Counted from the stretch's first letter, positions 22,312 to 59,421 are shown. The stretch is DNA of 64,000 nucleotides from a virus (IMGVR_UViG_2778261223_000007:12132-76131), one strand, 5' to 3'. The notes: generated from the letters alone by a model not told the origin. Program-made: numbers and translations.

Positions 22312-23018
22312 TGGATATCTGCATTCTTGAAAAGCCATCAATGACCAGCATTGAGATCGCGGAGCTGGTGGGAAAACGTCATGACAATGTGAAGCGTACC
22401 ATTGAAACATTAGCCGAATCCGGCGTTATTGTTCGTCCTCAAATTGAGGATGAACCAAAAATAGATGTAATGGGGCGTTCTCGATTAATTCAGGTGTTCC
22501 GATTTAGCGACGAGCAAGGCAAACGAGACAGCATCATTGTAGTCGCACAGCTTTGTCCTGAGTTTACTGCCCGGCTGGTGGACCGCTGGCGCGAACTGGA
22601 AGAACAAGTACGCCAGCCGTTGACCGAAATAGAGATGATCGCCGCAATGGCTGCAAATGCAGTTCAGCAGCAAAAGCGGCTTCATGCTGTTGAGTCAAAG
22701 GTTAGCCAGGTCGCTGAAACCGTCGAGCAAATCAAGAAGGGCAATATGCCAGATGGCTACATTGGCTACCGCCAGCTGGCGGCGAAATGTGGCCTGACCG
22801 AAGCCAAATGCCGTAACCTGGTTAACGCTTACCGGATTCCCACCGATACACATGAGTTTTTAACTCCAGAGGGGGTATTGTCGCGTCGTTCCATCGTGGC
22901 CTTATCTCCCTTCATGAATGCTTTTAACCGGATGATGTCGGAGGCTGAACACCGAGGAAAACGCTGGTATCACCCCAAAATGGGGCAATTCCAGGTGATC
23001 GGTTGGGGAGGTGAGTGA
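22311..23018 (+). CDS. ant: antirepressor (Rha-type N-domain plus KilAC-like C-domain)
   Basis: MTSIEIAELVGKRHDNVKRTIE is the Rha-family signature; paralog of 58495-59421. Confidence 0.75.
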   Translation: MDICILEKPSMTSIEIAELVGKRHDNVKRTIETLAESGVIVRPQIEDEPKIDVMGRSRLIQVFRFSDEQGKRDSIIVVAQLCPEFTARLVDRWRELEEQVRQPLTEIEMIAAMAANAVQQQKRLHAVESKVSQVAETVEQIKKGNMPDGYIGYRQLAAKCGLTEAKCRNLVNAYRIPTDTHEFLTPEGVLSRRSIVALSPFMNAFNRMMSEAEHRGKRWYHPKMGQFQVIGWGGE

Positions 23019-23215
23019 TGGACATCATGCAGGCGGTAAAAAAAATCAGGGAAGGACAGGCTGAAGTGTGCCGCCGTAAAGCATGGAGTGTTGGTGTATG
23101 GGCCTGGCCTGATAATTACTCTACTACCGGATGGTTTTGTATTAATGGACTCCAGATCCGGGAAGTTGATTTATCGACGGCTGATATAGTCGGTAATGAT
23201 TGGATCGTGACTTGA
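23015..23215 (+). CDS. short DUF2829-like protein
   Basis: 66 aa with CRRKAW...DIVGNDWIVT. Homologous to the C-terminal 64 aa fused to Ant in the second module. Confidence 0.55.
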   Translation: MMDIMQAVKKIREGQAEVCRRKAWSVGVWAWPDNYSTTGWFCINGLQIREVDLSTADIVGNDWIVT

Positions 23216-23223
23216 AGCGTGAT

Positions 23224-23248
23224 GCCCCGGCCTGGCCGGGGCTTTTTT
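23224..23248 (+). terminator. intrinsic terminator
   Basis: GCCCCGG-CCTGG-CCGGGGC followed by T6. Confidence 0.8.
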
Positions 23249-23733
23249 CATGCCTCATTAGTTGAGGTTGCTGCGTCTCCGACTGGTAACAGAGCGGTAT
23301 TGCGTGGTTCGCCAGCAGGCCAGCGATAGCCAGACACTCTTGATGTTGGGAATGCGCGAATATTAACCGCATCCCCCTGGTTCCCACCCAGGACAAGCAG
23401 ATCGCCATTGGCGCGGCGTCCGACAACGAAGCCTACGTGCCCACCGCCTACACGGGTAAATACAACGATACATCCGTATGCCGGTGTATCTAATTTCTCG
23501 CCCCAATCCAGATAGGATTTTGCCGACTCAAATCTTGTTGAGCGGATGCCTACACGTTCCAGCATTGCACCGACAAATGCTGCGCACCACGGCGTTTCAT
23601 CGTCTTTAATTCCGCCGCGCTTGATGTCGCGCCAGAACTGAACGATTTCAGGGTTGTGTTTAGCGCCTTTTATTTCAGTCAGGCCAATGTGCTTACGGGC
23701 TTCAATTAGCCAGCGAGGTTCAATGTTTGCCAT
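23248..23733 (-). CDS. NlpC/P60-CHAP-type cell-wall hydrolase (TIGR02594-like), candidate endolysin
   Basis: 161 aa. ETPWCAAFV (catalytic Cys) and GGGHVGFVV (His); LVLGGNQGDAV. No signal or SAR sequence. A late-promoter motif lies upstream. Confidence 0.6.
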   Translation of the reverse strand: MANIEPRWLIEARKHIGLTEIKGAKHNPEIVQFWRDIKRGGIKDDETPWCAAFVGAMLERVGIRSTRFESAKSYLDWGEKLDTPAYGCIVVFTRVGGGHVGFVVGRRANGDLLVLGGNQGDAVNIRAFPTSRVSGYRWPAGEPRNTALLPVGDAATSTNEA

Positions 23734-23768
23734 ATTTTTCTCCCGGTCATGGGTTAATAAGTAGGCAA

Positions 23769-23789
23769 ACTATGGGGAGTATGTGATTT
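23769..23789 (-). promoter_or_regulatory. candidate late promoter AAATCACA-TACTCCC-CATAGT (minus strand)
   Basis: Motif copy 36 nt upstream of the hydrolase start codon. Confidence 0.5.
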
Positions 23790-23812
23790 TGACGGTAGTA
23801 TCGTCCCCCTGA

Positions 23813-23833
23813 AAATAACATTCTCCATACCCT
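23813..23833 (+). promoter_or_regulatory. candidate late promoter AAATAACA-TTCTCCA-TACCCT
   Basis: Motif copy 52 nt upstream of darB; divergent from the previous one. Confidence 0.45.
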
Positions 23834-23884
23834 CTCAACCGTACCGCATAGCGGAATTTTTTACGGTTTAGAGGGGGAAATCCT

Positions 23885-26800
23885 TTGGACAAACTACTTC
23901 ATTCAATCAGTGAAGCCTCCAGCTTAGGCGAACTGATTGAAATTGTTAGTCGGTTGCATAAATTACGTGCTGTTGCGACCTTTGGCGTCAGGAAAGCCGA
24001 TGGCGTCAGTATTCAGAAAACACGCCGGGCAGCAAATAATGCCGCAGTAAATCTTCTTAATTCCCTTCCGCCCGGCTTCGATGGGGCGAAATTAACTGAC
24101 GAACAACGTCAGATTCTTGCCGGGTATACCGGTGAAGGCGGCCTGACAGATGGTGAGGGCAGCCAATACGAATACTACACGCCACAGTTTATGGCTGAAG
24201 GTATATGGGATCTGTTTGCTGACTACGGTATTGATGGCGGGCACGTACTGGAACCATCAGCGGGCACAGGTATTTTCCAGGAGACAAAACGGCAGGGCAT
24301 GATAATGACCAGCGCGGAACTGTCTCCGATTTCTGGTCGAATAAACCAGCTTTTGCACCCGGAAGACGATGTGAATATCGGGGCGTTTGAGGCGCTGGCG
24401 GCGAAAGATGCAATGTATGACCACGCTGTTGGTAACGTACCGTTTGGTGAAGGGCGTTCCGGCGTTGCCGGGCTTGATCCGGCATATGCAAACGAGAAGA
24501 ACGTTGGCAATTACTTTGTGCTGCGCACGATCGACAAGGTTAAGCCTGGTGGGCTTATCGTATTGGTGGTGCCAAATGGCATGACCGATGGTACGAAATA
24601 TAAAAAATTGCGCGATAAAGTCAGCCGTAAAGCGGAATTTTTGGGCGCACATCGTATGCCTTCCGGTACGTTCAGCGAATCCGGTACAGATACCGTGGTG
24701 GACGTATGGGTATTGCGTAAACACCCGGAAACCTTCCTGGAGATGATCCCCGACACGGATGATTCAACACTCAAATCGGCAAACGTCCTTTGGGATACCT
24801 TCCTCAAAGGAAAATGGTTTACAACCGAAGGGAAGCGATTTGTTTACGGCGACATGGAACGTGCCAGCTTCCGCAATACCCTGGTGGTGAAAAAAGACGG
24901 TCGTGTATCCAATGAGTCGATGAAAACCGCGCTATCTCGTCGCTTTGATAGTCGCATCAATTGGGATTTGCTCGGCGTAACTACTCAGGCATGGCAGGGC
25001 GCGAAAGTGGGCGATAAACGCCTTGTAGGCGGTATCTGGCATGAGTTTGATGGTCTGAAATGGGTTAAGGACACGACAACCAAATCCTCCGCGCTTGATG
25101 TAAGTCGATATGGTGTTTCGACGTTTGGCGATCTGCAGATCGCGTTCCAGTCAACAAACGGGATTCTGGCTTTGTCATGGGACCAGATATCGGCGATCGC
25201 GTCCGACTATCCATCGGTTGTCAGTGATGAAGTGGCAGCAATGATTCGCTTTGCTGGCAAGCAGCGAGAAAAAGATAGAGAGCGCGTTATGCGCGGTGCG
25301 CTGATAGGGCAGTTGATCAACAAGGCACTTGATTTGCGTAACCTGGGGGTGAACGTTGATGACAAACTGGCAGATGCATCCCGCCTGGCGGCAGCAGAAG
25401 TTGCGAAGTATGGACCACCACACGCCATTAAGCTGAATGGGCTTGCTGAAGCTGGCGCTAAAAACTGGATGACGTTCACTGGCAATGTGAAACAGGATGG
25501 TTCCACTTCTGACCTTCTGGCAGGGCGACTTGATGTAACGGATGGTGCTGCCGGTATTGACTTTACACGTCCTGAACAAGTGATAGCACATCTTTTCAGT
25601 GATGTAGCCCTTAATCCTATAACGCTGGGAGACTTTCGTGAGGCGTTTGCTGGTGAACTGCCAGAGGACGACGACGCGGCCCTTGAATACCTGGCGAAAT
25701 TTGATGATATCGCTATTGATGGGTATGGCTGTCTGCTGCCGATGGACCGCGCCACCAGCGGCGATGTTGCAACCAAAACAGCACTGCTGGTGGGCTGGCG
25801 TGATGCGTCAACAGGTGAGCAGAAAGCGAACTTTGAGCGTCAGTTGGCGAAAATCGAAGAGAAACGCATTTTCACGCCACTAAATAAAGTCACCGTTAAT
25901 CTGAATGCCCGCTGGCTGGATCGCCGCTTGATAAAAGAGTTCTTGGCAGAGCAGGGCTATGACGAGTTTAAGTACACTGAACCTGATCTGAAGGTCGTCG
26001 ATGGCATTCTGGTATCTCCGGACGATTACGAAGGTAAGGACGGGGTATTTACCGGCTATCAGCTACGAACCGTAAACGGCAAAAACGGGAATGAGTTCAA
26101 GAAGGCCAACAATAAAGACGGCTTCCTGAACCAGTTAGAAAACTACCTGAACGGTGTTAAACCGCGTGGGCAGAACGCTAACGAGTACCTGGATAAAATT
26201 GCTCAACTGGAAGTTAGCTTTAACGACTGGTTACGCACCCACCCGCAGGCGGATCAGATAGCCCGTGACTATAACGACGCATTCAATGGTTTCATTCCGT
26301 TCACACATTCTGACGCACCGCTTGGCCTGGAAGGGATTAGTGGAAAGCGCATTCCTCTGACTTATCAGAATGAAGAAGTTCGGCGCTTGTCAGAAGATGG
26401 GCGTGGCATCATGGGATTTGGTACCGGGCTGGGTAAAACCACGACCGCGCTTGCGCTTGAGGCGTATAACTTCGAAACAGGTCGCACTAAACGCACGTGT
26501 ATTGTTGTTCCGAAGGCGGTTTATCAGAACTGGTATCACGAGGCACAGAGTTTCTACAGTGCTGATGCCTTCGCCAATATGATGTTTATCGGTTTGGATG
26601 AAGTTCGTGATGACAGCGGAAATATTCTGACCGCGCCGGTGCTTGATGAAAATGGCGAACCACGCCTCGACAGTAACGGGCAGCCTCTTACCAGAAATGT
26701 TGTGAAAGAGTCCTCCAGCGCCGTTATCGTTCAGCGTATGAACATGATCCCGTCGTCAAATTGGCGAACGGTCATCATGACAAAAGAACAATTCGCGTCT

Positions 26801-30721: not shown

Positions 30722-30757
30722 CAGATAAGGAGCGGCCCCAACTGGGGCCGAATTTGA

Positions 30758-31192: not shown

Positions 31193-31194
31193 CC

Positions 31195-31575: not shown

Positions 31576-31644
31576 TTTTACAAATCTAACGTTGTTGTTA
31601 TTATTTCGCATATTTACTATCAATTGGTGTGTTAGAAAAATAGC
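31576..31644 (+). promoter_or_regulatory. promoter TTGTTG-17 nt-TACTAT (31591-31619) flanked by two operator-like sites
   Basis: Left site is degenerate (AAATCTAACGT, 31576-92). Right site has the exact core on the minus strand (TGTGTTAGAAAAATAGC, 31628-44). Confidence 0.5.
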
Positions 31645-32086
31645 GCGAAAGAGAAGGCGTCGCAGTGAATATTCTGAAACATCCCCACATGCCGCAGCTC
31701 TTAGAGAACTGGAGAAAAACCCAGATCTAATCAAAAGGAACCATGAGCATTACGAGCAGGTTCGCGTCCTGGACTGGATGTATCGCAATATGCGTTATGT
31801 GTATGAGCATACTCACGCCACTCCAAACGGTGGCCTGCGAGGCATAAGGACGGCAATAAAAATGGTGGCAGAGGGCCAAAAGAAGGGATATCCCGATCTT
31901 TCTATAGACCTTGCTTGTGGGGGATACCACGGAATGCGCATTGAGATGAAACATGGGAGAAATCGCCTGACTCCCGAACAACTCGTCTGGATGACTCGCC
32001 TCACAGAAGCCGGTTACTACTGCTTTGAGGCGCGCAGTGCCGCTGAAGCCATAAAAGCTATCACGGAGTATGTTTGTCTTGATTAA
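31592..32086 (+). CDS. VRR-NUC family nuclease (start codon uncertain)
   Basis: HEHYEQVRVLDW..THATPNGG..KGYPDLSI..GMRIEMK..LTPEQLVW matches the PD-(D/E)xK VRR-NUC pattern. The ORF-track TTG start lies inside the predicted promoter, and the first in-frame ATG (31778) would clip helix 1. Confidence 0.65.
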   Translation: MLLLFRIFTINWCVRKIARKRRRRSEYSETSPHAAALRELEKNPDLIKRNHEHYEQVRVLDWMYRNMRYVYEHTHATPNGGLRGIRTAIKMVAEGQKKGYPDLSIDLACGGYHGMRIEMKHGRNRLTPEQLVWMTRLTEAGYYCFEARSAAEAIKAITEYVCLD

Positions 32087-32100
32087 ACGGAGAAATCGTT

Positions 32101-32301
32101 TTGCGTTTACATAACGTGGCAGAACTTATCCCTGCAGGAACTAATGCTATCGCTCGTCGTCGCTCATGGCAGCAGGCTCTATGTATTGAGATCTCGAAAC
32201 GTATCAATGGAAGTTTTGAAGCTCGCAATATTGTTACTGGCGATAAGGTTCACATAACCCCGGAAAGTGCAAGCGCTGATGATTGGGAGTTTGTACATTG
32301 A
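32101..32301 (+). CDS. short DUF2829-like protein
   Basis: 66 aa, TTG start 8 nt after ACGGAG. IARRRSW...SADDWEFV. Confidence 0.45.
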   Translation: MRLHNVAELIPAGTNAIARRRSWQQALCIEISKRINGSFEARNIVTGDKVHITPESASADDWEFVH

Positions 32302-35153: not shown

Positions 35154-35229
35154 GATGGTGTAGCTCAGCGGTTAGAGCGGTTGACTGTTAATCAACGGGT
35201 CGATGGTTCAAATCCATCCACCATCGCCA
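35154..35229 (+). tRNA. tRNA-Asn (GUU)
   Basis: Manual cloverleaf: acceptor GATGGTG/CACCATC, D stem GCTC/GAGC, anticodon loop CTGTTAA, T arm GATGG-TTCAAAT-CCATC, encoded CCA. Confidence 0.9.
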
Positions 35230-35231
35230 AT

Positions 35232-35307
35232 GCCGGTTTAGCTCAGTTGGTAGAGCGCCTGCCTTGTAAGCAGGATGTCAGCGGTTCGAGTCCGTTAATC
35301 GGCACCA
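35232..35307 (+). tRNA. tRNA-Thr (UGU)
   Basis: Acceptor GCCGGTT/AATCGGC, anticodon loop CTTGTAA, T loop TTCGAGT, encoded CCA. Starts 2 nt after tRNA-Asn. Confidence 0.9.
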
Positions 35308-35308
35308 G

Positions 35309-35395
35309 CACAACAGGTAAGGGTATTTTGCGACGTCGGAGATCGCCGAGCTTGGCAGAGGGTTCGAATCCCTACGAAGTACCCTTACCGTTGTG
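35309..35395 (+). ncRNA. tRNA-like element lacking an anticodon arm, closed by a 16-bp bulged stem (hairpin B)
   Basis: CACAAC-A-GGTAAGGGTA pairs with TACCCTTACC-GTTGTG. Interior has a D-arm-like GCGA-CGTCGGAGA-TCGC and a T-arm AGGG-TTCGAAT-CCCT. No CCA. Confidence 0.45.
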
Positions 35396-35535
35396 ATGAA
35401 GTGCAGCTCTTTGAAGCAACCAGAAGATAAGCATCTGGCTTCACAACATAAACCGCAGGAACGACCAATAAACGGTAGTCCGTACGGAGAACACCCCGTT
35501 GAGGAAGAGGCCTGGCCGGAACCGTAACCGGCACT

Positions 35536-35627
35536 ACAACGTTGAGAACACTGGCGTAACGGGGTCATATCCCAATCTACGAATAAATGTTGCGTTGCAG
35601 CGTGACAACCAGTGTTCTCAACGTTGT
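35536..35627 (+). other. 19-bp perfect hairpin D (ACAACGTTGAGAACACTGG / CCAGTGTTCTCAACGTTGT)
   Basis: Perfect inverted repeat 35536-54 / 35609-27 with a 54-nt loop. Confidence 0.7.
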
Positions 35628-35772
35628 GGTGGATTCGCAGGCTGATGCGATAGCTTTCTTGGATGTTAGGGAAATGCGGCCGCAAATCTTCCCTTTCGCG
35701 AGCGGTGATCGTCCGTAGTCCTAATTGGCTGCACCGTATGCCGGAGATTCAGTACCGGCCACCACAACGGCC

Positions 35773-35859
35773 GGAGAGTAGGGCGCATGGTGCTCAAGCG
35801 GTCTTGAAAACCGTCCCATTGCGCAAGCGATGATGGTTCGATTCCATTACTCTCCGCCA
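35773..35859 (+). tRNA. class II tRNA-Ser (UGA), slightly non-canonical
   Basis: Acceptor GGAGAGT/ACTCTCC, anticodon stem GCGGT/ACCGT with loop CTTGAAA, variable arm ATTGC-GCAA-GCGAT, T loop TTCGATT, encoded CCA. Position 8 is A rather than U. Confidence 0.7.
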
Positions 35860-36126
35860 GCGCAACGTTAAGAGTATTTGGCTAATTAAGCGAATGCCGG
35901 AAGCAGAACCGGATCACCAAATGCGTACAGGCGTCATCGCCGCCCAGCCAGCCAAGTGCTCTTACCATTGCGGTGAATGCGGCTAAGCGCACGCGGAACA
36001 GTTAAAACAATCCTCCTTAGTGGTTAAGTCAAAAATCCCGGCGTTAATTGTTAACTGGTTAACGTCACCTGGAGGCACCAGGCACCGCAACCTAATAAAT
36101 ACGTCATGTTTATTGAGGGATAACCA

Positions 36127-36561
36127 ATGTTCGGTAAATTTTTCGGTAAGAAAGTCGCTTCAGCAAAAGTAGAGCTGAAAAGGGTTGAGAATCGCGATCT
36201 GATGGAGGCCATTATCGGTGGCTGTTTGTTGGTGTCTGCCGCAGATGGTGAAATCGAAAAGGAAGAAACAGCGAAACTTGATCAGCTTGTCCGCTCTAAT
36301 CCTCGCTTAAGTCATTTTGGCAACGAAATTACCGCAACAATCACCCGTTTTACTGAGCAACTGGAAGCTGGTTTCCGTGTTGGTCGCATGAATATCCTTC
36401 GCGAAATTGAAGATATCAAAAATGATCCAAAAGAAGCGGAAGAAGTATTCGTTAACATGCTGACGATTGCAGAAGCGGACGGTGAAATCGAGCCAGCAGA
36501 ACACAAAGTACTGGAAGAAGTAGGCCGTCGTTTGGGCCTTCGTGTGGAAGATTATCTGTAA
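36127..36561 (+). CDS. tciA: TerB-domain protein TciA
   Basis: 144 aa with two SAADGEIEKEE / AEADGEIEPAE TerB-type repeats; embedded in the tRNA cluster as in P1. Confidence 0.75.
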   Translation: MFGKFFGKKVASAKVELKRVENRDLMEAIIGGCLLVSAADGEIEKEETAKLDQLVRSNPRLSHFGNEITATITRFTEQLEAGFRVGRMNILREIEDIKNDPKEAEEVFVNMLTIAEADGEIEPAEHKVLEEVGRRLGLRVEDYL

Positions 36562-36725
36562 TGATTGGCAAGGCGCGTATTGCGTGCGCCATTGGTTTTC
36601 TCGTTTTGTCCGTGCTGGTGGATTTCACCAGCAAAGTGATGTCGGTGTTGGCTGATGGGGCACTGGTTTCAGTAGCTGTGGTATTGCTATTGCCGATTAT
36701 TAAAGCTGCGTTCAGGAACTCATGA
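36561..36725 (+). CDS. tciB: small membrane protein (TciB position)
   Basis: 54-aa ORF below the ORF-track cutoff. ATG overlaps the tciA stop (TAATG). Two hydrophobic helices. Confidence 0.5.
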   Translation: MIGKARIACAIGFLVLSVLVDFTSKVMSVLADGALVSVAVVLLLPIIKAAFRNS

Positions 36726-36835
36726 TGGATTTTTGGACGTATATTGATAAGAACCCTGGATGGTCTTTGCTATTTCTGCTTGTGATCGTATACGGAGTAG
36801 AACAAGTAGCGAAGAATCTCAGGCGTCGAAAATAA
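36722..36835 (+). CDS. tciC: small membrane protein (TciC position)
   Basis: 37-aa ORF MMDFWTYIDKNPGWSLLFLLVIVYGV..; overlaps the tciB stop. Confidence 0.45.
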   Translation: MMDFWTYIDKNPGWSLLFLLVIVYGVEQVAKNLRRRK

Positions 36836-36844
36836 AAACTAATT

Positions 36845-36920
36845 GGCCCCTTAGCTCAGTGGTTAGAGCTGGCGACTCATAATCGCACGGTCACCGGTTC
36901 AAGTCCGGTAGGGGCCACCA
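36845..36920 (+). tRNA. tRNA-Ile2 (CAU, lysidine type)
   Basis: GGCCCCTTAGCTCAGTGGTTAGAGC..CTCATAA.. is nearly identical in its 5' half to E. coli ileX as I remember it. Encoded CCA. Confidence 0.85.
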
Positions 36921-37374: not shown

Positions 37375-37950
37375 ATGTTAATGGCGAACGATAACGCATA
37401 TGCAGAAGAAGATCTCATTTTGAGTGACTTCATAGGGAAGCGTGAACGCTGGACCCAAAAGCGAGAGGAACTTTACGCCTCATTAGTTCGCAAAGGCGTC
37501 AATATCGAAACCGCACAGAGCGGCGATATGACAGTGGTAAGCGTTGGATTGCACGGTGTAAGCGTGTCAGCAATCAATCATGAGCCATACGTTGCGTTAT
37601 CCGAGTCAATGGTAAGGTTAGTTAAGTTCCTGAAGTACACAGAAGCGAATAATGTAATCATTGGCAAAAAGAATATCCCTTTTTCCTCGGCTTTTTACTG
37701 GATGATGAAAGGGCTTGATGCCCGGCGGACATCATGGCCTAAAGGGAGCTATATATCGATGTTCCGTGGCAGCATTGGCAGCAAAGAAAAGCTCTTCGAA
37801 TTCTTGCCGGAAGAGGCATTCGATATTGTGGAAGGGTGCGATGTGATGGTGATGCCTCGCCTGGTAATGATGAATGGTGATTTACAGGCGCAGACAGACT
37901 GGTTTGCAACTGGTGTGGATATTATCGCGACTGACTGGGAGGCTTTCTGA
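37375..37950 (+). CDS. protein with a C-terminal DUF2829-like domain
   Basis: 191 aa. FSSAFYWMMKGLDARRTSWPKG...DIIATDWEAF. Confidence 0.55.
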   Translation: MLMANDNAYAEEDLILSDFIGKRERWTQKREELYASLVRKGVNIETAQSGDMTVVSVGLHGVSVSAINHEPYVALSESMVRLVKFLKYTEANNVIIGKKNIPFSSAFYWMMKGLDARRTSWPKGSYISMFRGSIGSKEKLFEFLPEEAFDIVEGCDVMVMPRLVMMNGDLQAQTDWFATGVDIIATDWEAF

Positions 37951-42987: not shown

Positions 42988-43019
42988 TAACTTTAAATAA
43001 TTGGCATTATTTAAAGTTA
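42988..43019. other. rox recombination site TAACTTTAAATAAT-TGGC-ATTATTTAAAGTTA
   Basis: 14-bp perfect inverted arms with a 4-bp spacer. Reverse complement equals the published D6 rox sequence as I remember it. Confidence 0.9.
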
Positions 43020-43171
43020 GGCTATAATCATGTGTAGATGAACAGTATTGACATCACTGAAAATACGTGCATCCAATCAAAGGCTTGTATTTTGAAAATT
43101 AACTTATAGCTACCCTGTCATTTTTATATTTTTCGCGTAGCTTCATCTGTATATAGAGGTGAAATGGTTTC

Positions 43172-45596: not shown

Positions 45597-46037
45597 ATGA
45601 ATAACATGGCAACGAAAGAGCTTTTTAAGTTCCTTCCAAAATACAAAGCTCACAAAAAAAATGGAACCACGGTCATCATTACGGATGACAACGGCGTGAT
45701 GATTAATCTTACCGGGAGCGTAACTATTTCTGCTGGTGGCATCACCACCCAGCAAGAAGAAATCGACCTTGAAGCAGCCGACTTTTCTGACGCGCTGATG
45801 TGGCTGAAGGATGGCAAGAAAGTTGCTCGACGCGGGTGGAACGGCGAAAACCAATTCTGCTGGCTGGTTCCTGAAGGACAGTACCCGGCACGAATGGAAG
45901 CCATTAAGGGATATTTCCCCGGCGACCTCGTTCCGTATGGTGCTTATTTCGCCTTAAAAAATGCACAAGGTGTAGTTGTTCCGTGGGTTCCTTCTGTAGG
46001 CGACTTACTGGCATGTGACTGGTTTGTGGTGGAGTGA
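45597..46037 (+). CDS. DUF2829 (Tad2-like) domain protein
   Basis: C-terminal half FSDALMWLKDGKKVARRGWNGENQF...VVPWVPSVGDLLACDWFVVE is a canonical DUF2829 pattern. Confidence 0.7.
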   Translation: MNNMATKELFKFLPKYKAHKKNGTTVIITDDNGVMINLTGSVTISAGGITTQQEEIDLEAADFSDALMWLKDGKKVARRGWNGENQFCWLVPEGQYPARMEAIKGYFPGDLVPYGAYFALKNAQGVVVPWVPSVGDLLACDWFVVE

Positions 46038-46824: not shown

Positions 46825-46853
46825 AAGCCCGCTTGGTATGGCGGGCTTCTTTT
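46825..46853. terminator. intrinsic terminator between convergent operons
   Basis: AAGCCCGC-TTGGTATG-GCGGGCTT followed by CTTTT. Confidence 0.75.
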
Positions 46854-50577: not shown

Positions 50578-50587
50578 AATTTATGCC

Positions 50588-51043: not shown

Positions 51044-51044
51044 A

Positions 51045-51260: not shown

Positions 51261-51439
51261 ATCAGTCTCCTTTAGTGCGCAGGTGGTTTTTCCAGCGGTT
51301 TTGCGCCGCGCTGCCCTTATCTCGGACTCCCTCTCTGGCAATTCCAGAAAATGAAAACAACACCACACGACGATTGCTAACTCTCAACCACTGGCTGGGA
51401 TAGCAAAGTCTGTATACACGGGAGATAAGCATCTTAGCT

Positions 51440-52373: not shown

Positions 52374-52386
52374 TGCGTTGTTCCCA

Positions 52387-53382: not shown

Positions 53383-53422
53383 AATGTATACCGACTCTGT
53401 TTTGTTCCGAGCGGTAAAATAA

Positions 53423-53456
53423 TGTGTTAGAAAACTAAAATCAATGTTCTAACGTA
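53423..53456. promoter_or_regulatory. inverted operator-like pair TGTGTTAGAAAACTAAAAT / AATGTTCTAACGTA
   Basis: Left half has the exact core and the right half is near-exact. Overlaps a leftward TTGATT-17 nt-TATTTT promoter. Confidence 0.55.
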
Positions 53457-53480
53457 ATTTTGAGTGCGTAAATGATTTGA

Positions 53481-54173
53481 TCAGACTTTAAGCTGCCCTC
53501 CCTTCACCTGCATTAGCGTCAGATTTCCGCAAAAAACCGCGCCCGTGTCTATGTAGTGCTGATTCCAGTATGCTTTTGGTCTTCGTACCGGTGTGTGCCC
53601 AAAGATAAAGCGATCTGCGCCTGTGATTTCTCCACCAATGCCATCTATCGAATCACCGACGCGACTGCGCGACCAGACAACATCAAAAAGCGACACATCC
53701 TTACCGAACTGGTACTCTCCACCTGGATAGTCGGCATGGGCTATAACGATAGTTTCATGCCCGGTGTTCAACTCAATGATATATGGCAGACGCTTTACCA
53801 GCTCCACCAGCGCCCAGGCTAATATTTCCTGATCAGTGTCCAGCATGAAGAACCATTGTCCGCCATTCATTAGCCAGTTATTCACGTTGCCATCAGGACT
53901 TAACGCATCAAGCATCAACCGCTCATGGTTCCCCATTACTGCCCTGAACCAGGGCATCTGCAATAGTTCCAGACATTCGACATTTTCAGTACCGCGATCG
54001 ATAAGGTCGCCAACAGATATCAGTAAATCCTGCGCCGGGTCAAAATCCACACGATGGAGTTCGGACATCAGTCTGGTGTAGCAACCATGCAGATCACCAA
54101 CAACCCATATGTTTCTGTAGCCAGAACCATCAATACGGCTATATAAATTCACTTCATGCATAGTCTGGATCAT
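53481..54173 (-). CDS. pap: Ser/Thr protein phosphatase (lambda PPase-like metallophosphoesterase)
   Basis: GDLHG, GDLIDRG and GNHE motifs. ATG 54173 follows GGGAGAAGG and overlaps the upstream stop (the ORF track starts at 54203). Confidence 0.85.
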
Positions 54174-54481
54174 GCGGCAACCTTCTCCCGCAGCCAGATA
54201 CAAACTGGACCATCTTCAGTGTCATGAATAGAGCCAACAAACCAGCCTTCACCCTCTGGTCGCTCCGGTTCCCAGGCGGCAATATCGGGACCAGCTGCGT
54301 CCAGATCAAAATCATCTTCATCCATACTGCGAATAGTCCACTGAAGATTATTTTCCTTCATCCAGGCGTCAAATTCCTCAGTGGAAATATATTCACGACC
54401 TGCGCAAAACTTCTCATACTCCGGATGTGTCCAGCAGCCATATTCATCACGTTCTACCGGCATTTCTTTAATGATGCTCAC
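54170..54481 (-). CDS. acidic hypothetical protein
   Basis: 103 aa within the overlapping gene chain. Confidence 0.45.
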
Positions 54482-54702
54482 TCTTCATCCTCCAAGTCGG
54501 CAACGGCCTCCATCACATCAGAACCGCGAATAACCGCAAAAGCACGGCAGGCCATTTCAAACACCTGTTGTTCTTGCGGATGCGGTGACTCCCAATACTT
54601 AAAACCAGGTCGATGCTCGTAACCCATCATGGAATAAAAATCGCCAGCAAGTTCAATCGCGGCATCAACAAGTTCGCGATTTGTCATCGTCTGTTCTGTC
54701 AT
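54478..54702 (-). CDS. hypothetical protein
   Basis: 74 aa within the overlapping gene chain. Confidence 0.4.
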   Translation of the reverse strand: MTEQTMTNRELVDAAIELAGDFYSMMGYEHRPGFKYWESPHPQEQQVFEMACRAFAVIRGSDVMEAVADLEDEE

Positions 54703-54973
54703 TTGGTTTCTCCTGTCTGAACATCACTATCATCAGGTCGCCTTTTATCGCTATTCTGGCTGTTGTGCCTGGTTCAATGCGGCTAAGTTCAAATGCGTCA
54801 TAGAACGCTTCTAATGCCTTCTGGCGTAGTTCCTGTTTGCGCCGTTTTTTCCACTCTTTTAGGAAAATGGAACCCAGCCATCGCCAGGTACGGGACATGA
54901 TGTAAAGCCAACCGAGAAGTGCCAGACCGGTATTTAGGGCCGTATCGATCGTTATCGTGGTGTCGATATTCAC
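54665..54973 (-). CDS. membrane protein
   Basis: 102 aa with TM helix GLALLGWLYIM; GTGA overlap with the upstream gene. Confidence 0.4.
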   Translation of the reverse strand: MNIDTTITIDTALNTGLALLGWLYIMSRTWRWLGSIFLKEWKKRRKQELRQKALEAFYDAFELSRIEPGTTARIAIKGDLMIVMFRQEKPNDRTDDDKSRTC

Positions 54974-55218
54974 TGTGGTGGCTCCTGCTTTTCTGCCTTT
55001 AATACCATGCGAGAACCATCATCCAGCTCCCAATTAATTTCACCGCCTTCAGCCATGACTAGATGCCAAACGAGTTGTGCGGCCTCGTTGGTTACATCAC
55101 GACCGCGATCATTGCCGACACGACGTTTTGTTCCATCCCCTAAGTCACGCATTTTTGCCAACACGATGGTTTTTGATAGCGGTGAAAAACCAAGCTGTAG
55201 TCGTGCGGTATTACTCAC
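54970..55218 (-). CDS. hypothetical protein
   Basis: 82 aa from GTG 55218, 6 nt after GGAGG (the ORF track starts at 55251). Confidence 0.4.
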   Translation of the reverse strand: MSNTARLQLGFSPLSKTIVLAKMRDLGDGTKRRVGNDRGRDVTNEAAQLVWHLVMAEGGEINWELDDGSRMVLKAEKQEPPQ

Positions 55219-55703
55219 TGTTTGCCTCCTTTGCGAAGCTGTTCCGCCCATTCTTCAAGGGATTTCTCCGCATATTCACCGGACAGGCCATCAATCGGGT
55301 GCGGTTCATTAGCCAACTCTTCTTTCGCTGACAGAATCATGCGCGTAACGTCGAAAACTTCACGTAAAGACTTATTGATAAATCCGTGGTTGAAAGCAGC
55401 AGCAAGACGGCTTGCGGTATAGTTAATCCCCTCGTTGCGAGCCGCCGCACGAATTTCAGCCAGAAAAGCATCGGTGGCTGGAGTTTCGCTGTGGTGCAGG
55501 GCATCGTTGATAATCATTGCAGCAACTCCGGCCTGACCTGCATCCGTGACCGACACATGCTCAAGAGTTACAGCCATTGCATGTTTCAGCCCAGCATTCT
55601 CCGCCGCCAGCGCAGCACACGCTTTCTCAAGTCGGGAAATTTCCGTTACATACTCAGCGTTACGCTCTGCCAGTTGTGCGGGCGTTAAACCTTCAGACTT
55701 CAT
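55215..55703 (-). CDS. hypothetical early protein
   Basis: 162 aa, helical. Confidence 0.45.
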   Translation of the reverse strand: MKSEGLTPAQLAERNAEYVTEISRLEKACAALAAENAGLKHAMAVTLEHVSVTDAGQAGVAAMIINDALHHSETPATDAFLAEIRAAARNEGINYTASRLAAAFNHGFINKSLREVFDVTRMILSAKEELANEPHPIDGLSGEYAEKSLEEWAEQLRKGGKQ

Positions 55704-56010
55704 ACACTCTCCTTTCGAAATAAACGTACTGATTAATCATGCCTAGGGGCATTTCGAGTTTTTCCGCGATCTCACGGCGGGGAACACCACACCGATGAAG
55801 CTGCCGTGCCAGTTCTATATCGCCCTGCCGGTATTTGGCTGACGGGTGAAAGTCTCCTTTCAGAATCATGCAGATCCGCAGTTGCCGCGCTTTGGTTCTG
55901 ACAGCACTACCGGTACGCCCGATCAGCCTCCCAATACTCTCGACTGTCATAGTCCCGGCGCACTGGCGGAGTATCATGATTTCTGCCCTTCCCCATCCCC
56001 GCCAGCTCAC
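55693..56010 (-). CDS. HTH protein
   Basis: 105 aa with two HTH-like segments (VESIGRLIGRTGSAVRTKARQL; REIAEKLEMPLGMINQYV). Confidence 0.45.
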   Translation of the reverse strand: MSWRGWGRAEIMILRQCAGTMTVESIGRLIGRTGSAVRTKARQLRICMILKGDFHPSAKYRQGDIELARQLHRCGVPRREIAEKLEMPLGMINQYVYFERRVYEV

Positions 56011-56618
56011 GCAGAACTCCTTCTAACCAAAAGCACGCCATCTTCAGAAACAACGTTGCAGGACTTCAGGTAATTCATTGCCTCTTTCGGTAATGGATTC
56101 TTTGGATCGGCGTTTGCCAGGGATTTCGATAACCTCATGATAAATTTGATCATTACCTTCTGGCGGAGCTTGTGCTCATGAGATAAAGACAGGTAATAGG
56201 AAATGGTATGGGCTAAACGCTCACGAAGCTGTTCTGTGCCGTGATATACAGCAGCGATATCACACAGTGCATTGACCAGTTCCCGGTAAATATGCGGAGC
56301 AACCTGGCATTCAATGTTGGTTGGTGACTCATAAATTACAGTCAGCCCCAGCTTTTCAGCCAGCGCGTGCTCTGCACGAGCACCAATCGATTCCTCCCAT
56401 CGATTGAGCAAGTAGATCGCATCAGCAGAACGCACCATTGCCAGGCAAATATCCATGTATTCACTCTGACAAAGGCCACCAGGTAACACAGCTGGATTCA
56501 GAACGATATGCCCTTCAGCCATCAGCTCGCTCGCTTTCGCATTAAACGCAGCACGGTTGTAATCTGGATAACCAGTCATCGGCCCCGCGATGTAAATTTT
56601 CAAAACACGTTTCACCAT
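56007..56618 (-). CDS. DUF4406 (nucleoside 2-deoxyribosyltransferase-like) domain fused to an Ea22-type C-terminal segment
   Basis: KIYIAGPMTGYPDYNRAAFN...NPA...LLNRWEESIGARAEHALAEKLGL is the DUF4406 pattern. ATG 56618 overlaps the upstream stop (the ORF track starts at 56645). Confidence 0.65.
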   Translation of the reverse strand: MVKRVLKIYIAGPMTGYPDYNRAAFNAKASELMAEGHIVLNPAVLPGGLCQSEYMDICLAMVRSADAIYLLNRWEESIGARAEHALAEKLGLTVIYESPTNIECQVAPHIYRELVNALCDIAAVYHGTEQLRERLAHTISYYLSLSHEHKLRQKVMIKFIMRLSKSLANADPKNPLPKEAMNYLKSCNVVSEDGVLLVRRSSA

Positions 56619-56770
56619 CAAAATTTCCCCAAAATCGTGACGCAAAACATAAGCACTGCGAAAAGCTCAATACCAAGCTCAAGTAGCGCCAACGCCCCGA
56701 AAAACAACACATAGAACAGGCCAATCTCATTCACAGATGGCTGGTGGATCGCACTTAAAGCTATAAGCAT
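56618..56770 (-). CDS. 50-aa hydrophobic peptide, first ORF of the leftward early operon
   Basis: MLIALSAIHQPSVNEIGLFYVLFFGALALLELGIELFAVLMFCVTILGKF. GGAGGA SD upstream. Below the ORF-track cutoff. Confidence 0.4.
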   Translation of the reverse strand: MLIALSAIHQPSVNEIGLFYVLFFGALALLELGIELFAVLMFCVTILGKF

Positions 56771-56810
56771 CATGTCCTCCAAACAGTTATCAGGAATGAT
56801 ATTAATGTTT

Positions 56811-56843
56811 TGTGTTAGAAAATCAATTTTGAATATCTAATCA
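56811..56843. promoter_or_regulatory. bipartite operator-like pair TGTGTTAGAAAATCAATTTT / GAATATCTAATCA between divergent operons
   Basis: Left half has the exact core and the right half is a TCTAATC variant. P1 ref is likewise controlled by a bipartite C1 operator. Confidence 0.55.
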
Positions 56844-56890
56844 TTTTGATCAATCATAGAAAAATCGCTGAAAAGTAAGAGGCAGCCATC

Positions 56891-57469
56891 ATGCAGAAAC
56901 AGAGCTATTGGGAGAAACAGAGACAAAAAGCCATGCAAAAATTGGCTGACCCAGCCTGGCGAGAGGAACAAAGGGCAAAGTGCCTTCAACAAGCTCAACG
57001 CCAGCAGCAGCGAGCGAGAGAAAAAGCCGCATCGCCTGAATATCGGCAAAAGAAAATTGAAAAAGCAAAGCAATATGAACAGCGGAGAAAAGATAAAGCT
57101 GTATCCGCTCCGTCCAAAAAAACACGCACGTCACGCGGCCTGAAAGGCAGATCACTCACAGCCGATGAACGCCGGATACAGACCGCTATCGGTGCTCTCC
57201 CCTGCATTGCCTGCCATATTCACGGGCAACATAGCCCAGTGGTATCCCTGCACCATATCTTCGGGAGAACGGCAGAGAACGCGCATAAATATGTCCTCCC
57301 TTTGTGTAAATGGCACCACCAGTACGCAGCGCCAGCCGAGGTCCGAGAACAATATCCCTGGCTGGTCCCTGTTCATGCTGACGGAAAAATAGGCGGAAAA
57401 GCAGATTTCATGCGGCACAATGCCGATGAAATGACGTTGTATCAGATGGCGATTGAATTGATAAATTAG
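56891..57469 (+). CDS. ref: Ref, RecA-dependent HNH endonuclease
   Basis: 192 aa. ADPAWREEQ..SRGLKGRSLTADERRIQTAIGALPCIACHIHG..VSLHHI..LPLCKWHHQYAAPAEVREQYPWLVPVHADG closely parallels P1 Ref from memory. Confidence 0.85.
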   Translation: MQKQSYWEKQRQKAMQKLADPAWREEQRAKCLQQAQRQQQRAREKAASPEYRQKKIEKAKQYEQRRKDKAVSAPSKKTRTSRGLKGRSLTADERRIQTAIGALPCIACHIHGQHSPVVSLHHIFGRTAENAHKYVLPLCKWHHQYAAPAEVREQYPWLVPVHADGKIGGKADFMRHNADEMTLYQMAIELIN

Positions 57470-57480
57470 TTTTCTAACAT
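57463..57480 (+). promoter_or_regulatory. operator-like site AAATTAGTTTTCTAACAT, followed by promoter TTGAAT..TACATT
   Basis: Exact core overlapping the ref stop; heads the second immunity-I-like module. Confidence 0.6.
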
Positions 57481-57714
57481 TTTAAGTTGAATTGTAAATT
57501 TCTCCGATGTACATTCACTACCGATTGGCACACCGGTCAACTTTTTGAGACAAACTGTTTAGTTTTTCGTATTATTGCCGCCGCTATACCTATGGCGGTG
57601 CAATATAGGTGGCTGAAAAGCCCCCGTTGACTCACGGTGTTCCAGCCTTTATTGCGCCGCCACCAGACCGTGGAACAGTCGATGGCGGCTCCGAAAGCAA
57701 GGAGTCACTACACT

Positions 57715-57804
57715 ATGAACAGCTACTGTCTTTTCCCATCACTCGTTGTCCGCCACTCACGCGATAATCTGCATTCTTTACTCGCGCTGGGGGTGTCAAA
57801 ATGA
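57715..57804 (+). CDS. 29-codon leader ORF (weak call)
   Basis: AAGGAG SD upstream of the ATG; its stop overlaps the next ATG (ATGA). Confidence 0.25.
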   Translation: MNSYCLFPSLVVRHSRDNLHSLLALGVSK

Positions 57805-57968
57805 CCGTTCGTTACCTCAACTTTCAAATCCAGAACATCACTGGCGGTTGCTATGACTGGTTTGTCACTCTCGGAAAAGAAGTGATCACCGGGAAGCTGG
57901 ATGAAGTGAAAACTAAAGCAATGGCCTACGCCTGCAAGCAAGCCCGGAAGAAATCCGCCAAAGCATAA
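57801..57968 (+). CDS. 55-aa basic protein
   Basis: MTVRYLNFQIQNITGGCYDWFVTLGKEVITGKLDEVKTKAMAYACKQARKKSAKA. Translationally coupled to the leader ORF. Below the ORF-track cutoff. Confidence 0.4.
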   Translation: MTVRYLNFQIQNITGGCYDWFVTLGKEVITGKLDEVKTKAMAYACKQARKKSAKA

Positions 57969-58073
57969 AATACTGACTGTTGCGCCCTGGCATTATCGTG
58001 GGGTATATTTCTACGGCACCTTAGAAAAACGGGTGCCGGGATTGGAACCCCGGATAATGTCAAAGGCGACACA

Positions 58074-58094
58074 GACGCCGAAAGCGTCTTTTTT
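58074..58094 (+). terminator. intrinsic terminator
   Basis: GACGC-CGAAA-GCGTC followed by T6. Confidence 0.65.
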
Positions 58095-58109
58095 GTGTCA
58101 TGCCATCGC

Positions 58110-58275
58110 ACAGCCATACGTAGCGTTTAGCTCAGAGATCAATGGTAGTGCTGGCTGGGCTGCCGAAAGGCAGGCCGGTTCCCTTTGACGCCGGTAGTTC
58201 CAACCCAGTCAGTGCTACCGCCATTGAGATTGGAACCTCACGCGGTAGCTCCTTAACTTAGTCAAAGGAGGCTGC
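58110..58275 (+). ncRNA. candidate c4-type RNA region with tRNA-like 5' sequence
   Basis: GCGTTTAGCTCAGAG (tRNA D-arm-like), a CTGCC-GAAA-GGCAG hairpin, and CTCCTT..AAGGAG pairing that sequesters the icd SD. Boundaries unknown. Confidence 0.25.
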
Positions 58276-58279
58276 CAAT

Positions 58280-58495
58280 ATGGCTACTATCCCTACCCCA
58301 ACTCATTCTGAATTTATCTGGCGTTTCTATTCCTGCCAAAAACACCTGTATATCTGCGTCATGGCTGCTACCGAAGCAGAGGCGCGCTCATACCTTCCCG
58401 AAGAACCCTGCATTTTTGCTGCTCGCTTCACTCTTGATGCGATGGAGATCCTCAATTACTGGAATCTGCCGATGAACTGCGTGGAGGCGCACTGA
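58280..58495 (+). CDS. icd: Icd-like cell-division inhibitor, second copy
   Basis: 71 aa. SEFIWRFYSCQKH..AATEAEARSYLP; the stop overlaps the ant start. Confidence 0.65.
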   Translation: MATIPTPTHSEFIWRFYSCQKHLYICVMAATEAEARSYLPEEPCIFAARFTLDAMEILNYWNLPMNCVEAH

Positions 58496-59421
58496 TGAAT
58501 CTGTCCATCTCTCAAAAAGCGACAATGACCAGCATTGAGATCGCGGAACTGGTAGGTAAGCGCCCTGATAACGTTAAACGCACCATTGAACACCTGGCGG
58601 AACGGGGCGTAATATCTTTTCCTCAAATTGAGGAAAAGCCCACCGCAGGCCGCCCGGCGAGCTATTACGTCTTTGAAGGCGAACAAGGCAAGCGTGACAG
58701 TATCATTGTCGTCGCACAGCTTTCTCCCGAATTTACCGCCCGGCTGGTGGACCGCTGGCGCGAACTGGAGAATGCCCGGGTACAGTTAAAATCAAAAGCC
58801 GAAATCCTGGCTGAAATGGCGCAAATGCATCTTGAGCATGAACGCCGGATCAACGCCGTTAATGCCCAGGTAGCCGAAGTATCGGCACAAGTGTCCAAAG
58901 TCGCTGAAACCGTCGAGCAAATCAAGAAAGGCAATATTCCGGAAGGCTACATTGGCTACCGCCAGCTGGCGGCGAAATGTGGCCTGACTGAAGCCAAATG
59001 CCGAAACCTGGTTAACGCTTACCGGATTCCCACCGATACGCATGAGTTTTTAACTCCCGATGGTTTGCTTGCGCAACGCTCCATTGTGGCCCTGGCCCCC
59101 TTCCGGAAAGCCTTTAAGCAGGTGATGTCGGAGGCAGAACCACGCAATAAACGCTGGTATCATCCAAAGATGGGGATGTTTCAGGCAATCCACCATCCTG
59201 TGCCTGAAAGTCCAAAGGCAAACCTGTCGTTGCATACCGCCAGAGAGAGGATTAAAACAGGCTATGCAATCGTATGCCGTCGAGCATCCTGGCCTGAAGG
59301 TGTATGGGTGTGGCCCGAAGGTGGATCACGAAAGCACTGGCGCACTATCCGGGATGGGAAAATCCATGCGATTGATTTAGCTCCAGAGGATGTTGTTGCT
59401 ACGGACTGGATTGTTAGTTAA
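58495..59421 (+). CDS. ant: antirepressor, second copy, with a fused C-terminal DUF2829-like domain
   Basis: 308 aa. Rha signature MTSIEIAELVGKRPDNVKRTIE; C-terminus CRRASWPEGVW...DVVATDWIVS. Confidence 0.75.
   Translation: MNLSISQKATMTSIEIAELVGKRPDNVKRTIEHLAERGVISFPQIEEKPTAGRPASYYVFEGEQGKRDSIIVVAQLSPEFTARLVDRWRELENARVQLKSKAEILAEMAQMHLEHERRINAVNAQVAEVSAQVSKVAETVEQIKKGNIPEGYIGYRQLAAKCGLTEAKCRNLVNAYRIPTDTHEFLTPDGLLAQRSIVALAPFRKAFKQVMSEAEPRNKRWYHPKMGMFQAIHHPVPESPKANLSLHTARERIKTGYAIVCRRASWPEGVWVWPEGGSRKHWRTIRDGKIHAIDLAPEDVVATDWIVS

Follow-up and report, generated by a model that had tools for sequence, protein, structure and literature searches.

Five Tad2-like (DUF2829) candidates are encoded in a D6-type P1-like phage-plasmid, analysed here as a single window of 64,000 nucleotides with ~99% identity to phage D6 and 99.9% identity to Salmonella pYU39_89. 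Judged by sequence, two of them (45597 and 37375, designated here by their first nucleotide) are certain members of the family, while the other three, the stand-alone ORF 23018, the C-terminus of the antirepressor-like protein Ant2 and ORF 32101, are probably remote homologues that retain only the core of the domain. We consider the chance somewhat better than even that these form two classes, in which 45597 and 37375 are full-domain sponges and the three core-only copies of the 65-aa type have been exapted. Among phage counter-defence families, that of the Tad2 sponges is a major one, and its ligand range is now being mapped. For the five candidates, the results below establish relatedness or resemblance in fold, conserved residues, genomic context and purifying selection; the oligomeric states, ligands and anti-defence activities proposed for them are inferred.

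Membership of the Tad2-like family

All five ORFs of a preliminary description of this DNA were recovered in place, with the start of the first moved from the GTG at 23015 (66 aa) to the ATG at 23018 (65 aa), which is the likely initiation codon. The two-part signature proposed there was too narrow: its first half, [AC]RR.[SAG]W, matches only four of the five because 45597 reads ARRGW, and its second half, D[LIV]..[DN]DW.[VF], matches 23015 and none of the other four. A relaxed signature, RR.{1,2}W followed after 25-90 residues by DW at 1-5 residues from the C-terminus, retrieves exactly these five and no others among the 776 ORFs with 40 aa or more in the six frames of the window, and sub-family HMMs searched against the window return the remaining candidates as their best non-self matches. 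A sixth copy was ruled out, three family HMMs run over the 776 six-frame ORFs having recovered five only. At least five D6-like contigs in IMG/VR carry all five types together, and in alignment with SPO1 Tad2 every one of the five conserves the core residues G, R, W and D-W. No NCBIfam model proved relevant to any of these proteins, and none of these sequences is present in the supplementary tables of the 84-sponge screen.

The preliminary description had assigned DUF2829 to all five. At the gathering cut-off of PF11195 (Tad2-like/DUF2829; 25 bits, profile length 73 positions), this assignment stands for 45597 (81.3 bits, E 8e-23) and 37375 (39.1 bits, E 1e-9), and the three short copies fall below the 25 bits. 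ORF 23015 scores 15.1 bits (E 0.034) in an end-to-end alignment covering profile positions 1-72 of 73, while the whole of Ant2 and 32101 give no match. When relatives are considered, PF11195 is the top family, below threshold, in 14 of the 15 members of the short family that comprises 23018 and the Ant2 C-terminus (best E 0.0066), and the top match, again below threshold, in two of the ten members of the 32101 family (E >= 0.15). Annotation by Pfam threshold would overlook family membership for most of the five paralogues. Even the two Pfam-positive domains, 37375 and 45597, do not match each other significantly by BLASTP (E 0.84), indicating that the family is strongly diverged.

Full-domain members at 45597 and 37375

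The canonical member is a 146-aa protein, the equivalent of D6 orf114 (45597..46037, + strand), with its Tad2-like domain at aa 62-145 (~nt 45780-46031); it is labelled 'DUF2829 domain-containing protein' in RefSeq, and the canonical P1-like/D6 copy is widespread among Enterobacteriaceae phage-plasmids. A phmmer search of the PDB with 45597 retrieves ModTad2 (9eib, E 2e-20), as well as HgmTad2/AcrIIA7 (8kbi) and SPO1 Tad2 (8sme), and the domain is nearer to ModTad2 (77 bits, 40 of 88 residues identical) than to SPO1 Tad2 (41 bits). ModTad2, or MoTad2, is a His-ADPR/Pycsar sponge from a Myroides odoratus prophage (PDB 9EIB, 8V3E), the nearest relative of solved structure, and is 45% identical to the 45597 domain over 88 aa; the extended beta2-beta3 region is of equal length in both and the pocket motifs GWN, PW.PS and D..A.DW are kept. 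Unlike ModTad2, 45597 has 57 aa left over from an extra N-terminal domain that has been deleted, and several changes on the adenine side (T65->N, D67->Q and H71->V in SPO1 numbering). This remnant derives by in-frame deletion from the ~130-aa N-domain found in relatives of 220-263 aa in other P1-like elements, and, given the deleted N-domain, 45597 might be a decaying gene.

The ligand residues of SPO1 Tad2 are W25, N26, W73, S76 and D79 (bioRxiv 10.1101/2023.05.01.538930), and all five are kept in 45597. Proteins of the ModTad2 clade sequester His-ADPR and cUMP/cCMP, and single Tad2 homologues, by way of two distinct pockets, counteract Thoeris I/II/IV, CBASS or Pycsar (10.1101/2024.01.03.573942; 10.1101/2025.08.24.671296). 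With its complete ModTad2-type domain, 45597 would most likely form the usual homotetramer and sequester TIR-derived ADP-ribose signals of the His-ADPR or gcADPR type, with cyclic nucleotides possibly bound in a second pocket. Such a sponge would shield the phage-plasmid against abortive infection by systems of the Thoeris type, and perhaps by those of the Pycsar or CBASS type, making the 45597-type canonical copy a concrete candidate for an anti-Thoeris and anti-Pycsar protein in E. coli and Salmonella.

The second member is a diverged two-domain protein of 191 aa, equivalent to D6 orf6 (37375..37950, + strand), in which an N-terminal part of 100 aa with no assigned domain precedes a Tad2-like domain at aa 103-190 (~nt 37681-37944). 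This C-terminal domain aligns by hhalign with an 88-sequence canonical alignment (Prob 92%, E 7e-7), and a homologue in a 90-kb contig has a precomputed PF11195 match, while phmmer with the single 37375 sequence against the PDB retrieves no Tad2 chain. The beta2-beta3 loop with its helix alpha2 segment is present in the alignment, as it is in 45597. Compared with SPO1 Tad2, 37375 has, besides the N-terminal domain, an extra insert of ~14 aa ahead of the second pocket Trp and the replacements N26->P and S->T (SPO1 numbering); W25, W73 and D79 are kept, which makes a sponge role plausible. Both halves of the protein show a dN/dS of 0.08-0.11, and among phage records it is found in D6 only. With both pocket tryptophans and the aspartate, the diverged domain would probably be a sponge of altered specificity.

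Core-only copies: homology, fold and pocket

The three short copies are the stand-alone 65-aa protein corresponding to D6 orf17 (23018..23215, + strand), the C-terminal domain of Ant2 (aa 244-308, nt 59224-59418, + strand) and a 66-aa protein corresponding to D6 orf11 (32101..32301, + strand), with a TTG start and a GGAG Shine-Dalgarno sequence. By hhalign, the family comprising 23018 and the Ant2 C-terminus aligns with canonical Tad2 end to end (E 1e-5 to 2e-3), the 32101 family with that family (E 3-5e-5) and the 37375 C-terminal domain with the 32101 family (E 3e-4), and none of 80-100 column shuffles per comparison attains these three scores. The 32101 ORF also matches the Ant2 C-terminus by BLASTP (E 6e-7). 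Direct comparison of 32101, the most diverged of the core-only candidates, with canonical Tad2 is weaker: against a 15-sequence canonical profile its family is not significant (14 of 100 shuffles attain the score), and against an 88-sequence profile it aligns across 27 columns only (E 3e-3). Word-indexed homologue searches with two of the short ORFs returned only 3-8 close relatives, as did searches with the alignment of the two, so that no deep profiles could be obtained by this route. When 32101 was compared exhaustively by phmmer with 1.84 billion representatives, only five members of its own family and no bridge to DUF2829 were recovered. Searches of PDB sequences with the short proteins (phmmer) and the short-family profiles (hmmsearch) gave noise only and no Tad2 chains.

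It had been feared that the 66-aa forms might be too short to adopt the Tad2 fold. This concern does not seem to be borne out, as the whole 73-position Pfam core is covered and the models resemble Tad2 structures. In rankings of 48,164 chains, two independent AF2 models of short forms share a pair of Tad2 representatives among their four best matches, a pair that also surpasses the other top matches in sequence identity; the model of 23018 has a pLDDT of only 68, and Foldseek of the 32101 model against the PDB returned nothing significant. The short forms appear to retain helix alpha1, the sheet and the helix/strand with the C-terminal ..DW, along with the G...RR..W segment, and probably belong to the alpha1 and antiparallel-sheet fold family of SPO1 Tad2 (Gp34.65; PDB 8SME), the founding gcADPR sponge. 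That 45597 and 37375 are the only real Tad2-like domains, and that the 65-aa sequences belong to an unrelated small alpha+beta family which acquired its motifs by convergence or chance, is unlikely: the alignments extend well past the motifs, over 60-62 hhalign columns and nearly the entire Pfam profile, composition-preserving column shuffles never match the real scores, and both the structural ranking and the best Pfam family of 14 of the 15 members point to Tad2.

In the alignment, all three short copies retain the core and lack a segment of ~25 aa between beta2 and beta3 that contains helix alpha2. In Tad2 this loop builds the V-shaped dimer of the homotetramer, while in HgmTad2/AcrIIA7 (PDB 8KBI, 9KZR) a far longer beta2-beta3 insert is the site of cyclic dinucleotide binding; the short forms have no insert whatever. 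The pocket is likewise depleted, with W25 and D79 kept in 23018 and the Ant2 C-terminus alongside W73->V/I and N26->S/P, and W25 alone kept in 32101, which has lost N26, W73 and D79. The absence of both the alpha2 dimer insert and the second pocket Trp leaves canonical sponge activity unsupported in the short forms, although these losses are no proof that ligand binding has gone, since at least two distinct pockets are in use among Tad2 homologues. The idea of a panel of sponges with differing specificities, put forward in the preliminary description, is accordingly narrowed to 45597, with its full set of ligand residues, and 37375, with W25, W73 and D79; the three short copies drop out for want of the alpha2 insert and W73.

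In its strongest form, that idea would make all five proteins active nucleotide sponges with different ligands, the short forms binding through a re-modelled interface. The functional plasticity of the Tad2 family, whose two pockets serve to inhibit several defence systems, speaks for this, as do the retention of W25 in every short form and of D79 in all but 32101 and the joint conservation of all five in the D6 lineage. P1 immI operons are active from the moment of infection, when C4 RNA has yet to build up, and operons of this type, switched on at once, would offer good timing for anti-defence. We nevertheless judge it decidedly improbable, since the residue and helix losses above are compounded by the covalent attachment of one copy to a DNA-binding Rha/Ant protein and by relaxed constraint on the stand-alone copy, 23018, for which dN/dS is 0.35-0.6, compared with 0.08-0.2 for 37375, 32101 and the Ant2 C-terminus (0.09-0.20 in the last). 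The favoured two-class reading treats the 65-aa core-only form, devoid of the dimerisation insert, as a minimal version of the fold. If such forms still bind nucleotides, the minimal sponge would be redefined; if they do not, recycling of the sponge fold would be demonstrated.

Antirepressor modules and the pmg operon

The contexts of the short copies, an antirepressor C-terminus and a darB-pmg operon, point to other roles, and under the two-class reading these copies would probably serve, by exaptation, as small protein-interaction or oligomerisation modules and not as free sponges. Two of them form the last module of two C4-RNA-controlled icd-ant operons, coupled to Ant1 in one and fused to Ant2 in the other. 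The first immI-like module, c4-icd-ant1-orf17, includes a C4 antisense RNA (21954..22039, + strand; Rfam RF01695, 68.8 bits) with its c4-a1b1 target at 21834-21886, Ant1, a Rha-type antirepressor-like protein of 235 aa (22311..23018, + strand; Phage_pRha 37.2 bits and D6 annotation), and the 65-aa ORF, translationally coupled to Ant1 via a TGATG overlap. Directly after this ORF, the sequence reads as a hairpin, GCCCCGG...CCGGGGC, followed by TTTTTT (23225..23249, + strand), which is likely to be where the icd-ant1-orf17 transcript terminates. The alternative that Ant1 and the 65-aa ORF are joined by a -1 frameshift was rejected on account of a TGA in that frame (23012-23014), directly ahead of the start. 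The second module, c4-icd-ant2, comprises a C4 antisense RNA (58138..58225, + strand; RF01695, 77.1 bits), an icd ORF (58280-58495) and Ant2 (58495..59421, + strand), a 308-aa protein with a Rha/wHTH N-terminal part, a centre shared with Ant1 and the core-only Tad2-like C-terminus. Ant2 matches Phage_pRha (PF09669; 30.7 bits, cut-off 29.9) and phrog_63 (E 2e-64), and its residues 247-307 match phrog_7385 (E 1e-13). In both modules a C4 RNA lies upstream of icd and a putative antirepressor gene, as in P1 immI (c4 antisense RNA - icd - ant), and the annotations of D6 and pYU39_89 include Icd-like genes. Unlike in P1 immI, where Ant is of the Ant1/2 type, the Ant proteins here are Rha-type and a Tad2-like mini-domain closes each module.

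Ant1 and Ant2 are paralogues, 66% identical over aa 1-230; Ant1 ends where the Ant2 linker starts and has no C-terminal mini-domain. This split and fused layout, together with the TGATG coupling and the C4 RNA control common to both modules, lends itself to a reading in which the short domain is an antirepressor partner, mediating oligomerisation or repressor binding within Ant2, with the free copy modulating the Ant proteins through hetero-oligomers, either as a co-factor or as an anti-antirepressor. Oligomerisation via alpha1 and alpha2 contacts is obligatory for the Tad2 fold, and in related contigs with broken Ant2 genes the C-terminal ORF is still intact, which also suits this reading; it is rather unlikely, given that the 32101 copy adjoins no ant gene and that an identity of just 40% between the 23018 and Ant2 copies argues against tight hetero-oligomerisation. 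It would represent a specific form of the role envisaged for the core-only class.

The third copy, 32101, is a fixed part of another operon. It lies between pmgM-like and pmgR-like genes, and genes of its type occupy position X in a darB-ulx-pmgM-X-pmgR-pmgS operon in which synteny is kept down to 37% identity.

The core-only form in antirepressor operons may represent the exaptation of an anti-defence domain for lysis-lysogeny regulation. It is conceivable, if highly improbable, that on the antirepressors this domain is a degenerate sponge turned sensor of a host immune messenger or related nucleotide that switches Ant, with the free and darB-operon copies having arisen from this minimal fold by further exaptation. 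The plasmid-prophage would then detect the alarm of abortive infection, set off for instance by a superinfecting phage, and lift the repression of its own lytic cycle before cell death. A tblastn search with the mini-domain across 50,697 phage records, P1 and P7 included, located it in D6 only.

Membership of the Tad2-like family

The window derives from a D6-type P1-like phage-plasmid, sharing ~99% identity with Escherichia phage D6 (NC_050154) and 99.9% identity with the Salmonella Typhimurium plasmid-prophage pYU39_89 (megablast). Five ORFs had been described as carrying DUF2829 (Tad2-like, PF11195) domains, and all five translate as described, at 23015 (65 aa, likely start 23018), 32101 (66 aa), 37375 (191 aa), 45597 (146 aa) and 58495-59421 (Ant2, 308 aa). 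The proposed N-terminal signature is found in four of them, with ARRGW instead in 45597, while the C-terminal signature occurs in 23015 only. Relaxing the pattern to RR.{1,2}W and then a DW lying 1-5 residues from the C-terminus retrieves exactly these five from the 776 six-frame ORFs that reach 40 aa or more. When each sequence is compared with PF11195 (cut-off 25 bits), the family assignment stands for 45597 (81.3 bits, aa 62-145) and 37375 (39.1 bits, aa 103-190). The cut-off is missed by 23015 (15.1 bits, E 0.034), which aligns end to end with profile positions 1-72 of 73, and neither whole Ant2 nor 32101 matches this profile; the short copies are not formal Pfam members. The D6 equivalents of 23015, 32101, 37375, 45597 and Ant2 are orf17, orf11, orf6, orf114 and orf82 ('Ant'), respectively, of which only orf114 is labelled 'DUF2829 domain-containing protein' in RefSeq, orf17, orf11 and orf6 being 'hypothetical' and orf82 'anti-repressor Ant'. 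In the literature examined, DUF2829 is mentioned neither for D6-type elements nor as a fusion partner of antirepressors.

Profile comparisons link the short copies to the family. PHROGs assigns the 23015 ORF to phrog_7385 and reveals its homology to residues 247-307 of Ant2 (E 1e-13); its identity to this C-terminal mini-domain of Ant2 (Ant2C) is 40%. In hhalign, the 23015/Ant2C pair matches a 15-sequence canonical alignment (Prob 82%, E 1e-5, 62 columns) and broader canonical profiles (E 1e-3 to 2e-3), the 32101 family matches the 23015/Ant2C family (E 3-5e-5, 60 columns) and the 37375 domain matches the 32101 family (E 3e-4). These scores were reached by none of 80-100 column-shuffled controls, which preserve composition (z 3.8 to 8.7). 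Plain BLASTP aligns 32101 with the Ant2 C-terminus end to end (E 6e-7), and PF11195 is the top Pfam match for 14 of the 15 distinct 23015/Ant2C family members (best E 0.0066). Sub-family HMMs scanned over the 776 window ORFs return other candidates as their best non-self matches and no sixth Tad2-like copy. With the predicted structure of 23015, a weaker model (pLDDT 68), the known proteins ModTad2 and HgmTad2 rank second and fourth in structure comparison. A Foldseek search of the 32101 model against the PDB gave no significant match, profile HMMs of the short families recovered no Tad2 chains from PDB sequences, and 32101 aligns only weakly with canonical Tad2 in direct hhalign runs. Taken together, 23015 and Ant2C are probable remote Tad2-like homologues, as is 32101 with somewhat less confidence.

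Pocket residues and candidate sponges

The fold of SPO1 Tad2 comprises alpha1, a five-stranded sheet and a beta2-beta3 loop with helix alpha2, through which the V-shaped dimer is formed, and its pocket consists of W25, N26, W73 and D79, with contributions from S76, T78, I63, T65, D67 and H71 (10.1101/2023.05.01.538930). With this numbering verified on the sequence of 8SME, a seven-way alignment shows G, R, W25 and the terminal D-W to be invariant across all sequences. W25, N26, W73, S76 and D79 are retained in 45597. The 37375 domain retains W25, W73 and D79, carries the substitutions N26 to P and S76 to T and has an extra 14-aa insert. W25 and D79 are retained in 23015 and Ant2C, where W73 is replaced by V or I and the ~25-aa beta2-beta3 insert is missing, while 32101 retains W25 only. 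The suggestion that the 66-aa forms may be too truncated to fold like Tad2 is probably unfounded, as the entire Pfam core is represented in them and nothing is missing at either end. Judged from the alignments, they are core-only and lack the dimerisation helix and half of the canonical pocket.

The preliminary description, the observations of which are confirmed in part and the interpretation supported in part, proposed that the five paralogues could form a panel of sponges with different ligand specificities. More than one pocket is used among Tad2 homologues, which would leave room for such a panel, and the proposal fits 45597 and 37375, where pocket residues are kept; the three short copies, however, have neither the interface nor the residues on which the known mechanism depends, and a five-member panel is improbable. 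Most likely, the ORFs represent a Tad2-like family that is specific to this lineage, strongly diverged and divided into two classes, of which the first would comprise one or two true sponges and the second the three core-only copies, which were probably recruited to other roles.

Between the two candidate sponges, 45597 would present the stronger case. The closest relative of its domain is ModTad2 (77 bits, 40/88 identical), followed by HgmTad2 (48 bits) and SPO1 Tad2 (42 bits), and the extended post-beta2 region is of the same length in 45597 and ModTad2. A second pocket of ModTad2 binds cUMP and cCMP (10.1101/2025.08.24.671296). The ligands of 45597 are probably of the His-ADPR or gcADPR type, and perhaps also cyclic mononucleotides, while 37375 is a predicted sponge with probably altered specificity. 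In at least 60 P1-like IMG/VR contigs the 45597 domain forms the end of a 220-263-aa protein with a ~130-aa N-domain, of which only residues 1-20, plus the linker, are left in the window and D6 protein; the 146-aa protein is an in-frame deletion derivative. The N-domain of three relatives (L026, L014 and L007) carries the motif PKYKxHK...GGYLV.YEDGY.SYSPE..FE..Y, its remnant lying at 45597-45770, and two further loci (L048 and L070) have other N-domains, with the motif GDWIV...G..Y.C.P.IF..TY, fused to the same Tad2 domain. The gene is part of the string dre-orf-orf-dut-tad2-isaA, headed by a strong, near-consensus sigma-70-like site upstream of the recombinase gene dre (43001-43028, TTGGCA-16-TATAAT, 11/12 matches) and followed by a terminator-like site at 46831.

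Core-only copies in antirepressor modules

Complete C4 antisense RNAs are found at 21954-22039, with a c4-a1b1 target match at 21834-21886, and at 58138-58225 (Rfam). Each is followed downstream by icd and an Ant gene, and the window thus contains two immI-like modules, as already noted for pYU39_89 (PMC6799933). An isrK-like Hfq-binding sRNA match (58016-58094) lies upstream of the second C4 RNA. Ant1 (22311-23018) and Ant2 both have an N-terminal Phage_pRha domain and are 66% identical over residues 1-230. Ant1 ends at the point where the Ant2 linker starts, and the 65-aa ORF begins at a TGATG overlap, with GGAGG upstream and a GC hairpin and T-run downstream. The mini-domain is therefore fused in Ant2 and translationally coupled to Ant1. 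Frameshift fusion of Ant1 to the 65-aa ORF is ruled out by a TGA at 23012-23014. The stand-alone copy has 65 aa in all 11 of its variants from D6-like IMG/VR contigs, and Ant2 there either measures 308-313 aa or is broken upstream but keeps its C-terminal ORF. A role as terminal module of Rha-type antirepressors, in oligomerisation or partner binding, is the best-supported of those proposed for the core-only copies.

In several of the D6-like contigs L098-L104, Ant2 is interrupted upstream and an 83-120-aa ORF with the mini-domain stays intact, a pattern that could stem from repeated fission of the gene or from frameshifts in sequencing. The PLSDB gene table of pYU39_89 lists no CDS at 15488-16474, equivalent to window 58495-59421, despite an intact 308-aa Ant2 ORF; this may represent a pseudogene mark or plain omission.

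Distribution, selection and the darB-pmg neighbourhood

All five types occur together on at least five D6-like IMG/VR contigs. Among 50,697 phage records searched by tblastn, the 37375, 32101 and Ant2C types are found in D6 only, and a set of 1.84 billion proteins holds no more than five representatives of the 32101 family at 50% identity. In other P1-like elements, SJ46, RCS47 and Ro157c2YLVW among them, matches are confined to the region of the canonical copy, and classical P1 and P7 show no match even to this region. Values of dN/dS are 0.08-0.11 for both halves of 37375, 0.09-0.20 for the Ant2 C-terminus, 0.15-0.20 for 32101 (at dS 0.5-1.3) and 0.35-0.6 for the stand-alone 65-aa copy, the last figure resting on few substitutions. 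An IMG/VR homologue of the 191-aa gene (L241, 1501-2073) is disrupted by in-frame stops and a frameshifted segment near the N-terminal end of its Tad2-like domain (~aa 101-130), either through occasional pseudogenisation or assembly error.

The 32101 ORF begins with TTG, has GGAG as its Shine-Dalgarno sequence and runs into the start of the next gene. The order darB-ulx-x-pmgM-[66 aa]-pmgR-pmgS is kept around its homologues down to 37% identity. ARAGORN predicts four tRNA genes on the + strand at 35154-36920 (Asn, Thr, Ser(tga) and Met(cat)); the RefSeq table for D6 has three only, which in the oriented locus fall on the other strand, and Met(cat) (36845-36920) is not among them. Directly upstream of the 66-aa ORF lies the pmgM-like gene (31592-32086), homologues of which (L242, 4513-5004; L243, 4507-4956) show a weak VRR_NUC nuclease-domain match.
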